Part shown: positions 54,001 to 60,000 of the stretch, in pieces | Layout of the letters: each line of letters starts with the position of its first letter | How positions within the stretch are numbered: position 1 is the first letter of the stretch | Position numbers: made by a program | Assembly: GCA_016208765.1 (NCBI GenBank) | Contig: JACQXK010000065.1 | Coordinates: 962-64,961 of the forward strand | Reading direction: 5' to 3' | DNA length: 64,000 nt | Source: Candidatus Omnitrophota bacterium | GTDB taxonomy: Bacteria > Omnitrophota > Gorgyraeia > Gygaellales > Profunditerraquicolaceae

Positions 54001-57000
54001 AGGAGATAGGGGACTTGTCAAACATGTTTAAACGGCTTAATAATTATTATCAGGAATACATTAATACTTTTCTTACGCGTTTTACCGCTATGTTTGAGCC
54101 TGTTATGCTTGTGTTTATGGGGATAGTTGTCGGCATAATGGTTATTGGGATGTTTTTACCGATATTCCAGCTGACCCAGATTAAATAGTAATGCCCCGAA
54201 TGACACAGCATGCGTCATCCTGAACGAGCATAAGCGAGTGAAGGATCTGGGTTCTTAGTCTGCTCGTCGGAAGTTGACTTGTTCTTTTTAAAATGGTATA
54301 ATATAAATAGGTCAGTTCTTGAAAGGAGGTGGGTCAAACCGTTAGTTTGTTTGTTGTAATTCTACAACTTAAAAGGAGGATAAAATGAGAAAAGGTTTTA
54401 CTTTAATAGAATTATTGATTGTTATCATTATTGTAGGTGTTTTGGCAACATTGGGTATTATTCAGTATCAGGCGGTTATTGAAAAGGCAAGAGGGGCTGA
54501 GGCAAAGCAGGTGATCAGTACTTTACGTAGCCAGTGTGCTGCTATTTATCTGGATACGGGTGCTACAACTACTTGTACAGCTGCAAATTTAGGGGTTGGC
54601 GTTGGTATTCCTGGTCCTGCTGTAGCAAATTGCGCAACAACAAATTATTTTTATTATAATGTTGCGAATGCCACTCCCGCAGTGACTTTTACTGCTACAA
54701 GGTGCGGAGCTACAGGAAAAAGCCCGGCAGTTGCAAATGCTACTGGAAAAACCCTGGTGTTAACGACTGACATGTCCAATGGTTCAGATGTTTGGTCGGG
54801 AACAGGCGGGTATTAAAAAAGTTATTAGTTTTTTAGTGGAGAATCAAATGAAAAAGCCGCGTTTTTCTTGGAGAAATTTATGTTTTATAAAGAGAAGCGC
54901 GGCTTTTACATTGATGGAGATGTTGGTAGTTATTGTGATTATCGGTATTCTTGCAACCTTGAGTTTTTCGCATTTTGCTTCTGTAAGAGAAAGCACTTTT
55001 GACAGGGAAGCTCAGGCTAATCTACGGCTTATCTTGGCTGCTGAGAGAATTGCAAGGTTAGAGGATCCTGCTAATCTGTATGTAGTGCCTGCGCCAAATA
55101 ATAATAGCGGGATTAATACAGACTTGCACTTAATGCTTCCTGTCTCTAATCCTAACTGGAATTATACAATTAATAGTGCTAATGGCAGTGCATTTTGTGC
55201 TAATGCTTCCCGCAGTACAAGAAATTGGTGTATTAGTAATTTACAAGAAACTCCTCTTAACAAGGTCTGCGCTGCGGACGTTTGTCAGTAATTATTTATG
55301 GCCAACTGAGATTAATATGAATAACAGGTGTTTTTGTAACAAGGCATTTACGCTGATGGAGATTTTAGTTTCTATGATTATTTTTAGCTTATTAGTTATG
55401 TCTTTTGCAGCTTTAATTGTTACTGGAAAGCGTTATATAGCATCAAGTCGTGCACGCATAGCCGGAGGAGAGATCGGAAAATATTTTCTTGATCCTTTGC
55501 AGCTTCAGGTCAGGCAGGATCAATGGGGGAATAATTGTTTAAGTGCAGGCATTAATTGTGATACTGCTAACTGGATTGATCCTTCAAGCGGCATAGTTTA
55601 CACTCCTGCTTATAATTTTAGCGATGTAAATAATCTTCGCAAGTTAAAGCTAACCCTTACCTGGAATGAGCCGCAATAAGTCTTCCACTCTTTTTGAGCT
55701 AATAATAGCATTGGCGCTTTTTTCATTTTTGGTTTTGGGCGTTATAACAGCTGATTTTTTTGTGCGCCATCAGGTTGTCAATGCGCAGCGCAGGATAGTG
55801 GTGCAAAATGACCTGGCTTTTGTTGTAGAACATATGTCAAAGCAGTTAAAATATGCTATTGGAAGCAGTTCTGCCTGGGCATTGCAATATATTGTTATTC
55901 CAGCGCCTAACAATGAGCAGAGGATACTGGTTTATGTTGATGCTAATGGTAATGCCCAAAGAGATACTGTATTGCAGGGAGATAGAAATATAGCATACAG
56001 ATTTTATCCTGCAACTAAGAATGTTGTATTTTGCCAGAATTTTTCTGCTAATTGCTCTGACGAGGTTTTAAGCAACCATATTACAAGCCTTACTGTTTTA
56101 CCTGAGCCAAATTTTACTAATCTGTCATCTGATCCTCCATCCCCGTTTATTATTCCAACAGCAACGCTTCCGACAAATTGTATTTTTGTTCTTGTTACAG
56201 GATGCTGGGATCCTGCTCAGGCAAATCAGGCCTGCGGCACAGCGGATAATCCGGCAATTACCCTTCAGACAGGAATAAGCATGCCTTCTGTTTCTGTGAA
56301 CTAATCGTTTTATTTGCTAAACTTAAACAATTGTGGTAATTTATTTAGGTGAATTACGGGGCAGTAGCTCAGTTGGCCCCTACGCTCACAAAAAGATGTT
56401 CGTTCGGGGTCCCGACCGAATTGAAAACGAGCGTCGGGAGAGAGAGCGCCGCGTAAATATGAAAAAAGGATATGTTTATATATTAAAAAGCATTGAGAAG
56501 AATAGGTTTTATATTGGTAGTACAAACAATCTTGAAGAGAGGTTAAAGAGACATAAACATGGCTTGGTTAAAGCAACTCGTCCTTTATTGCCAGTGGAGT
56601 TGAAGTTTTTTCAGGAATATGGTACATTTGGAATTGCTCGTAAGATTGAATTAAAATTAAAGAAGCTTAAAAGAAAAGATTATATTGAAAATATTATTAA
56701 AGACGGTTTGATTAAATGGGGTAGTAGCTCAGTTGGCCCCGACGCCTTTGAGTAGCTATAGCATAGTGGGTCGGGGTCCCGACCGCGAACAAAGTGAGCG
56801 CGTCGGGAGAGAACGCCGCATTTCCACCAAGTTTCAATAGATTGATAATTAGTTGAGATTAGGCAGTAGCTCAGTTGGCCCCGACGCCTTTGAGTAGCTA
56901 TTGCGTAGTGGGTCGGGGTCCCGACCGCGAACAAAGTGAGCGCGTCGGGAGAGAACGCCGCATTCGCATTGCGGAGGTCAGCGGTTCAACTCCGCTCGGG

Positions 57001-60000
57001 TCCACCAGAAATTTCCGTCAAAGAGAAATTTAAGTGGTACTTGCTCGTAAAAAAGCTCGCAAGAATTTCGATAGATAAAATATTTTTTAAGCTCAAATTG
57101 TTAAACAGTTAGACAAGGGTAGCAGTGAGTTTAGTACCTAAATATAAAGATGCTAAATAAAGTCCAAAGAAAAAAGCTTCTTGTGATAGCCAGAAATACC
57201 ATTGAAACATATTTAATTTCAGGTAAAGAGCTGACTCTGACTGAAACTGACCCCGCTTTAACACGAAATGCCGGAGTATTTGTAAGTTTGCATGAGAATA
57301 ATAGCTTGAGAGGATGTATAGGCAGTTTATGCGCATCAGGGCCTTTATTTTTAGCTGTGCGTGATATGGCGATACAAGCAGCTCTGTGCGATCCTCGTTT
57401 CCCGTCGCTGACAATTTCAGAATTGCCTCAAGTTGAAATAGAGATCTCCGTGCTTTCAAAGATGAAACGTATAAATTCAATTGAAGAAATTGAATTGGGC
57501 AAGCACGGAGTAATGGTGAAAAAGGGAAGCTGCTGCGGAGTATATTTGCCGCAGGTAGCGCTTGAAACCGGCTGGTCAAAGGAAGAATTCCTTTCAAGCC
57601 TTTGCGCTCATAAGGCGGGATTACCTTCTGAAGCCTGGAAGGATAAATTTACCGAGGTCTGCATATTCGGTGCGGAAGTTTTCTCAGAAAAAGATAATTA
57701 ATGAATAAATTTTTTGTTCCTGCCCAGAATATTTCCCAAGATAAAATCAGCGTTTTAAATAGCGATCAGATTCATCATCTTCAGGTTGTTTTGCGGCTTA
57801 AGCCCGGAGAGGTAGTTGGTGTTTTTGACGGCGCAGGAAATGAGTATATGGCAACAATTGATAAGATATCCGCGAGATCCGTGGATTTAACCGTCCTGGA
57901 AAAAAGCAGCGCGTCCAATATTAATAAAATTTGTGTTACTATTGCCTGCGCAATCCCCAAGAAAACCAGCATGGACGATATTATTGATAAATTAACACAG
58001 TTAGGCGCGGATAGGGTTATCCCAATGATTACTGAGCGGGTAATTGTCAGGCTTGATCAGCAAAAAGCCATTTTACGTAAAAAAAGATGGGATAAAATTT
58101 CCTTAAATGCTTCTCAGCAAAGCCAGAGGTTAAACCTTATGGCTATTGATCCGCTAAAAGATATCAGTGAAGTTTTATCTGAGGCGGGAGGTTTTGATTT
58201 AAAATTAATTCCAACTATATTAGGAGAGCGAAAAGAGATTAAGGAAGTTTTGGCGCAGACGCAAGCAAGGAAAATTCTGGTTCTTATCGGCCCTGAAGGA
58301 GATTTTACTCCTGAAGAAGTCAGCGCTGCGGTTAAATCCGGTTTTGTTCCTGTTTCTCTCGGAGAAACTGTCTTGCGCGTTGATACTGCAGCCATTGTAG
58401 TTGCCGGCTTCATTAAGTTGTATGCAAACAATTAAATTTTTTACATTAGGCTGCAAGGTCAATCAGTATGAAACGCAGGCAATCCGCGAACATTTCTTGA
58501 AAAAGGGTTTCACAGAAATTAGTAATGGGCTTGCGGCGGATGTTTATGTAATTAATACCTGTACTGTTACGCATAAAGCTGATGCGGAATCATTTAATTT
58601 GATCCGCCGTTTCCGACGACAAAATCCCAAAGCAAAGATAATTGTTACCGGTTGCCTCACCAAGCTTGATTCAAATAAAATTCTCGCCTTATCCCCTGGA
58701 ATTTCTGTAATAAAAGATAAAACAAAGATTATGAGTAAAACTGTTTGTGATTTTAAAGGGCGCACCAGGGCATTTTTAAAGATCCAGGATGGTTGTAATA
58801 ATCATTGTTCATATTGCAAGGTGCCTTTGGTTCGCGGTAGGTCAAAGAGCAGGCCATTGGCACAGGTGATTAAAGAAGCAAGGCTATTAGTCAACAAAGG
58901 TTTCAAAGAAATTGTTCTTACCGGTATTTGCCTTGGATCTTATGGGAGAGATTTTAAAAGAAAGATTGAATTAACCGCAGTAATTAAGGCCTTGGAAGAA
59001 ATTGAAGGATTATCGCGGATTAGGCTGAGTTCAATTGAGGCAGGAGATGTTTCTGATGCCTTAATTGATTTGATGCGTAGGTCTAAAAAGTTATGCCATC
59101 ATTTGCATATCCCTGTGCAGAGCGGAGACGACAAGATTCTAAAGAAGATGAACCGCAGGTATTGCCGGGCAACATATTTATCTTTGATTAAGAAACTCAA
59201 GAAAAAAATCCCTGATATAGGGATTACTACCGATGTCTTAGTCGGTTTTCCCGGTGAAACTGAAGAAAATTTCCAGAATACAGTTGATTTAATAAATGAA
59301 ATTGAGCCTCTTAAAGTGCATATTTTCCCATATTCAAAAAGAGAGGGCACTGTTGCTTCCTTAAATAATGATGGCTTGTCGGACCCGTATTTGGTTCAAG
59401 AAAGGATGCGTAAATTAGCCTGCATCTCTGATGAATGTGCAAGAAAATTCAGGAGAAGATTCCTGAATAAGAAATTAGAGGTACTTGTTGAGGCAAGGAA
59501 AAAAACTAACCCGGATATCTGGCATGGTTACGCAAGTAATTACTTGCGGGCAGAAATTAAGTCTGAGCCCGATATTTCTAATATGATTTGCTGCATAAAA
59601 TTACGAACATAGATTTGTATTAAGCGCGTTTGAATCAGCCATAAAATATGTTACACTTATTATAGGGCTTTCATTTGAGGTGGATAGGCAGAAAATATTG
59701 TAATAATTATAAATTTATATCGGAATAAAGAATTTCTTTAAAGCCTATTCTTCAAACAGAAGGATAGGCTTTTTGTATAAAAAAACTTGACAAAAGGAAG
59801 GGGGGTGAGTAAAATAAATTCAATTGGGGGACAACGCAGCTTAAAAGAAACAGGCTCTTAAAAAAAGCAGTGGGTATAATCAATAAAGTAAATTAAGAGT
59901 AGTTTCAGGAGAGCGCGAACAGTTAATTTTACCCGGGAAAGGAGGCTTCATCAATGAATAGAAAAGGTTTTACACTCGTTGAAATCATGATCGTAGTAGC

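Follow-up and report, generated by a model that had tools for sequence, protein, structure and literature searches.

Why does a small GIY-YIG nuclease gene stand among three partial copies of a transfer RNA (tRNA) gene, each interrupted by hairpins? The question arises from 64,000 nucleotides (nt) of a Candidatus Omnitrophota bacterium (GenBank assembly GCA_016208765.1, contig JACQXK010000065.1, positions 962 to 64,961), hereafter called the window, in which an initial annotation had pointed out such an array. We consider it likely that a selfish Slx1/Ssn-like GIY-YIG nuclease and its hairpins form a cassette that lives in tRNA genes, and that in the window this cassette has been rearranged and has killed a dispensable tRNA. 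In the relative L103 the same site is empty, in the syntenic Omnitrophota contig L001 it is occupied in canonical form, and the same architecture is found in 77 loci. Of the explanations offered initially, a tRNA gene disrupted and partly duplicated by a hairpin- or nuclease-associated element is thus the one supported.

A dead tRNA-Ala(CGC) gene

The locus consists of three tRNA-derived units, copies A, B and C, and the nuclease gene. Its features are as follows.

56314..56342, + strand: promoter-like sequence of the tRNA locus, 5' of copy A (TTGCTA, 17 nt, TG-n-TAATTT, read from the sequence)
56358..56453, + strand: copy A, the upstream tRNA remnant (from alignment with the L001 and L005 remnants)
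56358-56376, + strand: copy A, tRNA nt 1-19
56410-56439, + strand: copy A hairpin 2, TCCCGAC...GTCGGGA
56440-56453, + strand: copy A, tRNA nt 20 to about 31, GAGAGAGCGCCGCG
56459..56755, + strand: GIY-YIG nuclease gene, 98 amino acids (Pfam)
56718..56829, + strand: copy B, in the place of the intact tRNA of canonical loci
56718-56736, + strand: copy B, tRNA nt 1-19
56737-56808, + strand: copy B hairpin doublet
56809-56822, + strand: copy B, tRNA nt 20-33, GAGAACGCCGCATT
56823-56829, + strand: copy B, terminal TCCACCA
56830..56859, + strand: spacer between B and C, aligning loosely with the sequence upstream of copy A
56860..56878, + strand: copy C 5' segment, TAGGCAGTAGCTCAGTTGG, tRNA nt 1-19 of L001 type with the first two bases altered
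56879..56950, + strand: copy C D-loop hairpin doublet, 72 nt (hairpin 1 56879-56918, hairpin 2 56919-56950)
56951..57007, + strand: copy C 3' part, tRNA-Ala(CGC) nt 20-76 with encoded CCA
57002..57037, + strand: decayed terminator palindrome over the CCA end, degenerate relative to L001

The three tRNA-Ala 5' segments that had been annotated begin at 56358, 56718 and 56860, and the 17-mer GTAGCTCAGTTGGCCCC is found exactly three times in the window (56364, 56724 and 56866; 0.06 expected). Two hairpins had been claimed for each copy. This holds for copies B and C and for hairpin 2 of copy A, but not for hairpin 1 of copy A, which is degenerate (CCCCTAC...GTTCGGGG, 56377-56409) and forms no clean CCCCGAC hairpin. 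Both hairpins of copy C are predicted to form, in DNA and RNA alike, and the second is 94% identical to the hairpin of the L001 remnant. In copy B, ...GCCGCATT is fused straight to TCCACCA, leaving out 36 nt that are present in copy C (56965-57000); the break after U33 falls at the same position where the L001 remnant stops. Units B and C form a 142-nt tandem repeat with 92% identity across 116 nt. Copy C continues into the anticodon arm CCGCA-TTCGCAT-TGCGG, the T-arm AGCGG-TTCAACT-CCGCT and the end CGGGTCC-A-CCA, all as first described.

The intergenic sequence at 56305-56357 shares 88% identity with the same position in L001, and L103 carries TTGCCT...TATAAT where the window has its promoter-like sequence. 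A consensus promoter scan made no call at 56314-56342, and we therefore treat the segment as a putative promoter. The same scan found a promoter-like remnant in the spacer between B and C (TTTCCA, 17 nt, GATAAT, from 56821). Where the window has the decayed terminator, L001 has a perfect palindrome, CCACCAGAAATTTCC-gacaa-GGAAATTTCTGGTGG; a terminator scan called none at 57002-57037.

No unit in the window is a functional tRNA. ARAGORN found no tRNA gene across the whole 64 kb, and Rfam at the gathering score gave no match in the window, neither tRNA nor intron nor any known RNA family. The acceptor stem of copy C, TAGGCAG against CGGGTCC, pairs at 3 of 7 positions, in agreement with the initial statement that this cannot be a standard tRNA. 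That statement had been argued from GGGGCAG, the strand of copy A and of L001, which was said to be unable to pair with CGGGTCC. Here it went too far, as 5 of 7 pairs are possible, including G3:U70; the failure to pair stands for copy C. As a control, the copy C 3' part joined to the L103-type 5' 19 nt was called tRNA-Ala(cgc) by ARAGORN.

Excising 56879-56950 restores CAGTTGG directly followed by GAGAAC, exactly as in intact relatives. With an insert this clean, and with anticodon and T arms that are perfect and identical to those of a functional tRNA, copy C might be a working tRNA whose D-loop intervening sequence is spliced from the transcript, like the non-canonical tRNA introns of archaea. 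We regard this as very improbable. A normally folding tRNA did not emerge on removal of the insert: copy C minus the 72 nt was rejected by ARAGORN, also at a relaxed threshold, because its acceptor stem pairs 3/7, and Rfam found no tRNA in it either. Elsewhere in the family, copies with hairpins are systematically missing the 5' strand of the acceptor or the entire 3' half and stand beside an intact copy. We know of no bacterial machinery for splicing D-loop tRNA introns, which also counts against this explanation. Rfam gave no Intron_gpI match in the window at the gathering score or in E-value mode, and there is no room for a ribozyme, because only 5 nt separate remnant A from the start of the open reading frame (ORF), which has its end within copy B. 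For the window locus a D-loop intron is excluded by the broken acceptor stem.

A structured non-coding RNA with tRNA mimicry had also been proposed. It could be a tRNA-like leader that controls the nuclease, or a mimic with the hairpin junction as acceptor 5' strand and hairpin 2 as D-arm. The minimum-energy RNA fold of copy C is indeed a four-way junction, made of an acceptor-like stem (GUGGGUC/GGUCCAC), hairpin 2, the anticodon arm and the T-arm. The sole tRNA-clan match in Rfam E-value mode is the transfer-messenger RNA (tmRNA) model, aligned to 56917-57007 with GGUCCCG as 5' strand, and the units lie downstream of a tRNA promoter and hence are probably transcribed. However, the tmRNA match of 25 bits is far under the gathering score of 47 bits, and the fold is no better than that of shuffled sequences (z = -1.7). 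The pairing is not conserved either: the hairpin-bearing copies of L003 and L012 have a 3' strand that agrees with the true tRNA instead of the hairpin, and upstream remnants have no 3' strand at all. Mismatches in the stems lack a G:U-over-C:A bias on the sense strand, and one hairpin lies inside a protein-coding gene. Taken together, this makes an RNA function for the array improbable. The hairpin junction (GGTCCCG or GUGGGUC) as a substitute acceptor strand was rejected as well; it is complementary to the copy C 3' strand, which we take as chance since the pairing is unconserved and the fold not significant.

The window locus is thus a dead tRNA-Ala(CGC) gene, and the tRNA has been lost from its usual locus. 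Its loss is tolerable because tRNA-Ala(UGC) is able to read GCG by wobble.

Occupied and empty sites in related genomes

L001 is a canonical occupied site. In brief, it carries the promoter, GGGGGCAGTAG, one hairpin of the window hairpin-2 type, GAGAGCGTCGCGTT, the ATG and the ORF, which shares its last 10 nt with the 5' end of an intact, ordinary tRNA-Ala(CGC), whose positions 8-10 provide the stop codon TAG. L005, L009 and L011 follow the L001 plan with a second type of tRNA-Ala(CGC), GGGCCCG...CGGGTCC.

Relatives with an empty site were found by scanning metagenomes for the anticodon and T-arm sequence. L103, L090 and L101 have the pilin gene, a promoter and one normal tRNA-Ala(CGC), and neither nuclease nor hairpins. 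The cassette is therefore polymorphic in its presence, being found in L001, L009 and the window and absent from L103, L090 and L101. Nucleotides 20-76 of the L103 tRNA are identical to the copy C 3' part at 57 of 57 positions, and those of L090 and L101 at 98%. A comparison with syntenic loci had been suggested initially, and the single ordinary tRNA-Ala at this position in L103 points to a history of insertion and rearrangement and not to a new class of RNA.

The comparison also revealed that the window locus is a mosaic. Its 5' pieces match the L001/L013 type at 19 of 19 positions, its 3' part is of the L103 type, and the join in copy C falls at the D-loop hairpin insert. The acceptor strands of the two types are not complementary, which explains the unpaired acceptor noticed in the initial annotation.

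A mosaic with tandem units might also be an artefact of assembly, in which strains were collapsed or repeats led to chimeric joins. The window derives from a metagenome-assembled genome (MAG), B and C nearly repeat each other, and C resembles one lineage in its 5' part and another in its 3' part, all of which would fit. With 8% of their positions different and the 36-nt deletion in one of them, though, B and C are not a collapsed or duplicated read path. In addition, the flank 3' of C is homologous to the L001 flank and not to that of L103, and similar multi-copy hairpin-bearing arrays are present in many independent assemblies. An assembly artefact is accordingly hard to credit.

The cassette is more similar between the window and L001 than its surroundings are. 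The ORF shares 85% nucleotide and 79% amino acid identity and the promoter 88% nucleotide identity, against 71% and 67% for AMMECR1 and 65% and 50% for the pilin gene.

Genes encoding PilC and several pilin-like proteins lie upstream of the locus, and AMMECR1, RsmE and a MiaB-like gene downstream. The upstream pilin-like genes are of type IV with N-terminal methylation motifs and form a long run (52950-56304) after a PilC/GspF gene; more pilin-like ORFs follow further downstream at 59954-60334. L001 has the pilin run in the same gene order, and L009, L103 and other Omnitrophota contigs have it in part.

Integration classically takes place at tRNA genes and leaves partial duplicates of the tRNA behind. 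The tRNA pieces might thus be attachment-site (att) scars, of attL/attR type, from serial integrase-driven integration and excision of islands or prophages, as had also been suggested. That the 3' half of copy C derives from another tRNA lineage than the 5' pieces would suit such a history, and as recombination scars in a loose sense the description may be kept. Beyond that it fails. No recombinase gene is found in or beside the locus, which is surrounded by genes for pilins, AMMECR1 and RsmE; the tRNA end that integrases duplicate is the 3' one, whereas the repeated parts here are nt 1-19 and 1-33; and 77 loci share the architecture with only an 87-amino-acid nuclease between the copies. We give serial integration hardly any weight.

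The nuclease, its hairpins and their tRNA genes

The ORF at 56459-56755 was confirmed to encode a GIY-YIG domain protein (Pfam PF01541, 56 bits against a cutoff of 22.6, E = 4.9e-15). The protein is 100% identical to one from a Candidatus Omnitrophica MAG and 79% identical to the 89-amino-acid protein of L001. A 1-nt difference from L001 shifts the frame, so the ORF skips the usual stop at tRNA nt 8-10 and extends with its final 38 nt into copy B. Proteins of this family have 85-98 amino acids, typically about 87, and 31 members, including that of the window, share the invariant catalytic-core residues Y7, Y18, G20, R28, H32 and E64. The entire window protein is one GIY-YIG domain and a basic tail of about 15 amino acids; no separate DNA-binding domain joined to the catalytic domain was found in it, unlike in I-TevI and the Seg proteins. 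In profile searches against PDB the best matches were 1zg2 (1.9e-10) and 1ywl (3.9e-8), followed by SLX1 (2.5e-5) and I-TevI (5e-5). Judged by these profiles, the closest solved relatives are the bacterial UPF0213/Slx1-like proteins 1zg2 and 1ywl, and the window protein, like them, is a single minimal domain. Both structures have been placed as bacterial members of a stand-alone Slx1-like group, and eukaryotic Slx1 is a structure-specific nuclease (PMC1564403). NCBIfam has no specific family model for the nuclease (the TIGR01453 match is sub-threshold), and a tblastn search against plasmids gave one weak Radiobacillus match.

A scan of one genome per species gave 80 loci with the nuclease, mostly from Patescibacteria and some from Omnitrophota and Elusimicrobia. 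The link to tRNA genes was counted in 86 loci (the scan and earlier loci), and hairpins and arrangements in 77 non-redundant ones. A tRNA gene on the same strand directly follows the ORF in 75 of the 86 loci; in 29 of these the overlap with the ORF is exactly 10 nt, and in about 30 others the distance is 0-18 nt. About a dozen tRNA types are involved, among them Ala, Arg, Asn, Asp, Gly, His, Ile, Phe, Pro, Thr and Val. Where no tRNA was called, the reason was a contig end, a mis-called ORF or a split tRNA-Asn. At least one CCGAC...GTCGG hairpin is located within 150 nt 5' of the ATG in 67/77 loci (two or more in 49), and 76/77 have hairpins somewhere in the cassette. Within 1.5-kb flanks, only about 15 of 212 hairpins are more than 200 nt away.

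The split tRNA genes are tRNA-Asn(GUU) genes after the ORF in L028, L064 and L073. The tRNA match ends after ...GACTGT, at position 35/36, and ARAGORN missed them. A group I intron site has been reported for tRNA-Asn as well as tRNA-Asp of Patescibacteria (10.1101/2025.07.03.662931); the break looks like this site, and a putative intron would fit there.

An upstream copy of the cognate tRNA, starting from nt 1, was found in at least 35 of 72 loci. The remnant co-varies with the locus's own tRNA, which is clear in eight tRNA-Arg(GCG) loci. The order of remnant, ORF and intact tRNA is found in 59 of 77 loci, and five have the mirror arrangement of intact tRNA, ORF and a hairpin-bearing copy without nt 1-7. 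Many loci have extra hairpin-bearing copies downstream; as in the window, the 3' parts of these depart from the intact tRNA through compensated changes.

For 24 hairpin blocks both flanks match the cognate tRNA. Half of them (12) are inserted cleanly into the D-arm or D-loop, so that the tRNA neither loses nor repeats a base; another 10 stand precisely in place of the 17-nt anticodon arm, and two fit neither pattern. In L084 the hairpins are in the T-loop. Hairpins nested one inside the loop of another are seen in L043 (downstream copy), L005, L035, L074, L029 and L081, which suggests that hairpin loops are themselves insertion targets.

In the window there are eight hairpins of the form CCCGAC-N(5-35)-GTCGGG, where none would be expected, and five of them are in the tRNA locus. 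The shorter core CCGAC...GTCGG likewise gives eight, against 0.5 in shuffles. The family-wide search pattern (NNCCGAC...GTCGGNN) fixed the core CCGAC/GTCGG. Of the stem pairs, the two outer ones are formed in 183/200 and 180/200 hairpins, with CG, TA and GC all in use, and this covariation supports a 7-bp stem; going inward, the first position in the stem is mostly mismatched. Exceptions of T:G and C:A type are equally frequent at the two outer pairs (8 vs 9 and 10 vs 12). Selection on a sense RNA would favor T:G, and the lack of a sense-strand wobble bias thus points to a function at the level of DNA. An RNA-guided nuclease with the tRNA-derived leader as its guide was rejected; duplication explains the match of leader and tRNA equally well, and the sense-strand stem bias is missing.

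The remaining hairpins of the window are at two other sites.

21868..21927, no strand assigned: hairpin doublet, two abutting TCCCGAC...GTCGGGA, in a 51-nt gap between same-strand genes
27138..27167, no strand assigned: single TCCCGAC...GTCGGGA hairpin, in frame inside lysA

The lysA ORF (diaminopimelate decarboxylase) spans 26149-27444. Its hairpin region is 27125-27181, with CAGGAGACAGGAGA on both sides, and coincides with a 13-amino-acid insertion relative to the solved LysA 2p3e. With the same hairpins at two other sites, they are small mobile palindromes and not terminators or RNA motifs specific to one locus. The doublet at 21868-21927 is far from any GIY-YIG gene, and the loop of its second hairpin resembles the reverse complement of the loop of the lysA copy.

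Hairpins of a related kind, CCCGCC...GGCGGG, were observed in L012, where they precede a partial copy of the tRNA 3' end (GAGTCCAGGTGGGCCCAGA) after tRNA-Met (1270-1400). The tRNA-Asp remnant of L002 has a similar CCCGCC hairpin. These may be a second hairpin family that acts likewise.

The strongest rival to a mobile cassette is coincidence. The nuclease would be a domesticated housekeeping enzyme, for example of DNA repair, co-transcribed with tRNAs, the hairpins generic palindromes of repetitive extragenic palindromic (REP) type that happen to gather at tRNA loci, and the partial tRNA copies ordinary debris of duplication, with no coupled mobile system. Such a view could call on the hairpins that lie away from any nuclease gene in the window, and on nearest-neighbour nucleases, which share the amino-acid type of their tRNA more often than not (36 same, 28 different). 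The prokaryotic stand-alone Slx1-like branch has been proposed to be ancient and largely vertical (PMC1564403). Coincidence does not sit well, though, with hairpins in the cassette of nearly every locus and so few at a distance, with the empty site in a relative, with an upstream remnant that is regular and position-specific, or with about a dozen tRNA types and switches between types at 70-75% identity. We hold coincidence to be unlikely.

Proposed mechanism and comparison with known systems

We suggest the following course for the selfish cassette. It consists of a minimal GIY-YIG gene and hairpins with the invariant CCGAC/GTCGG stem core, in the canonical order of tRNA promoter, hairpin-split partial 5' tRNA copy, ORF and intact tRNA. 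In this form the first 10 nt of the intact tRNA serve as the last codons and stop of the ORF, and the tRNA promoter would be used by the cassette. The nuclease may recognise the hairpins, or stem-loops of tRNA genes, in DNA. Repair of the breaks via tRNA homology would then spread the ORF and copy hairpins into tRNA loops, and the cassette may be moving still.

The mobile form can be pictured as a permuted unit of hairpins, tRNA 3' piece, ORF and tRNA 5' piece, which would recombine with the resident tRNA. A crossover on one side of the hairpins would give the common arrangement and one on the other side the mirror arrangement. Both crossovers, or a gene conversion in which a hairpin-bearing copy overwrote the intact one, would lead to the state of the window, with hairpins in every copy. 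There the hairpin doublet would have been copied into the tRNA copies downstream of the ORF too; copy B has lost 36 nt, and copy C combines a 5' piece from one tRNA-Ala lineage with a 3' part from a second one. The tendency of related nucleases to keep to one tRNA type, with switches at 70-75% identity, is consistent with occasional hops via conserved D-arm and T-arm sequences.

Several points weigh against this account. The tRNA scan covered the 64-kb window of a 129.7-kb contig, and a second tRNA-Ala(CGC) may be present elsewhere in the genome. Different orders of events for A, B and C fit the data and none is uniquely supported; either half of copy C may be the foreign one. Purifying selection, not transfer, could make the cassette more similar than its flanks. 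Homing endonucleases normally carry a DNA-binding domain, and the window protein is without one. An intact tRNA beside the nuclease gene would stay a target, unless recognition needs something more. Finally, none of the hairpins matches the recognition motif published for Ssn.

More broadly, the loci may represent an undescribed class of selfish elements inside tRNA genes of Patescibacteria, Omnitrophota and Elusimicrobia, an idea that we put forward tentatively and to which we give slightly less than an even chance. The hairpin would be the recognition structure of the nuclease and would be copied into the loops of DNA stem-loops, namely the D-loop, anticodon arm, T-loop and other hairpins. 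A working tRNA would be carried along or regenerated so that the host survives, and the element would hop between tRNA species via the shared D-arm and T-arm; in the window the host gene would have been destroyed. Full-text literature searches found no description of a cassette of GIY-YIG gene, hairpins and tRNA. The family thus appears to be undescribed, and the window locus appears to be an ordinary decayed copy.

It is the pattern at the level of the family that we find the interesting part. A small "hypothetical endonuclease" that is very common in uncultured bacteria is nearly always fused to a tRNA gene, and with it come sequence-specific hairpins by which arms of a second tRNA copy are split or replaced. 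For annotation, this genome lacks tRNA-Ala(CGC) at the usual locus, and labelling the GIY-YIG gene as a repair gene would be a mistake. Should the coupling be functional, we would have in the cassette a relative of the recently discovered Ssn nuclease/hairpin pairs that targets tRNA, an explanation for many odd tRNA fragments found in MAGs and an additional mechanism of tRNA gene turnover in streamlined genomes. The family could also be a source of new hairpin-specific nucleases for DNA work.

Among known systems, a mobile GIY-YIG ORF in mitochondrial atp6 of Allomyces and double-hairpin elements of chytrid mitochondria were reportedly described by Paquin, Laforest and Lang in 1994 and 2000. 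In Allomyces the endonuclease ORF is said to enter the gene together with a replacement partial copy, the resident part becoming a pseudogene, much as in the cassette. The tandem double hairpins of chytrid mitochondria reportedly behave as small mobile elements in the same genomes. Unlike the cassette, the Allomyces element belongs to a eukaryotic organelle, targets a protein-coding gene and displaces the 3' end. To our knowledge neither element is linked to tRNA genes or has a conserved CCGAC core.

REP sequences and bacterial interspersed mosaic elements (BIME), with their REP-associated tyrosine transposases (RAYT), and Rickettsia palindromic elements are short dispersed palindromes with conserved stems and a dedicated enzyme gene flanked by them. 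Rickettsia palindromic elements also insert in frame into protein genes, as the lysA hairpin does. In contrast to the REP/RAYT system, the enzyme here is a GIY-YIG nuclease and not a Y1 transposase, copy number is low (three outside the locus in 64 kb), and loops of tRNA genes are strongly preferred.

The free-standing GIY-YIG homing endonucleases of phage T4, especially SegB in the tRNA cluster (PMC2330249), resemble the cassette in that the gene lies beside tRNA genes, is polymorphic in presence and is co-inherited with neighbouring sequence. A recent report links SegB to segmental amplification of tRNA loci (PMC13096335). The Seg proteins differ in being larger and having a DNA-binding region, and their genes are intergenic, with no tRNA overlap, hairpin-split tRNA remnants or companion hairpin repeat.

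In ribosomal RNA (rRNA) genes of the Candidate Phyla Radiation, GIY-YIG ORFs are described in non-intron insertions, mostly at the tops or bases of stem-loops, in the portion of PMC11270868 considered here. The bacterial groups are the same as for the cassette, and here too a GIY-YIG ORF resides in a structural RNA gene without an intron ribozyme. The targets are rRNA genes, and that portion of the source describes neither a hairpin companion nor partial gene duplication. These insertions may be a related phenomenon.

The Ssn system comes closest. Ssn is a 94-amino-acid single-domain GIY-YIG nuclease that binds a hairpin repeat and cuts single-stranded DNA beside it, and its repeats flank its own gene, an NTS-ssnA-NTS layout that its authors liken to insertion sequences (Chenal et al. 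2025, PMC11893778). Like the cassette, Ssn (cd10448, NTS/SRM repeats) has a single GIY-YIG domain of about 90 amino acids, a gene flanked by hairpin repeats with a conserved stem, and further copies of the repeats scattered in the genome; of its own hairpins, the window has three further copies at two sites. The differences are the core, here CCGAC/GTCGG, and the closest solved relatives, here UPF0213/Slx1-like. The SRM consensus HGTCWYN(0-2)YYVSBRHN(0-5)WNVSBRGN(0-2)RNCYNB had no match on either strand of the window or the 77 loci, while the NTS positive control matched. In Neisseria gonorrhoeae NZ_CP119140.1 the best NTS pair was without a GIY-YIG ORF, and none was found in the first 100 kb; this record and NZ_CP119142.1 are 2.17-Mb chromosomes filed as plasmids, with 12 features in the record. 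The Ssn paper (PMC11893778) never mentions tRNA, whereas the present gene is fused to a tRNA gene, with its hairpins inside tRNA copies. Ssn is the nearest characterised analogue in behavior, and the cassette, if the coupling is functional, may be its tRNA-targeting relative.

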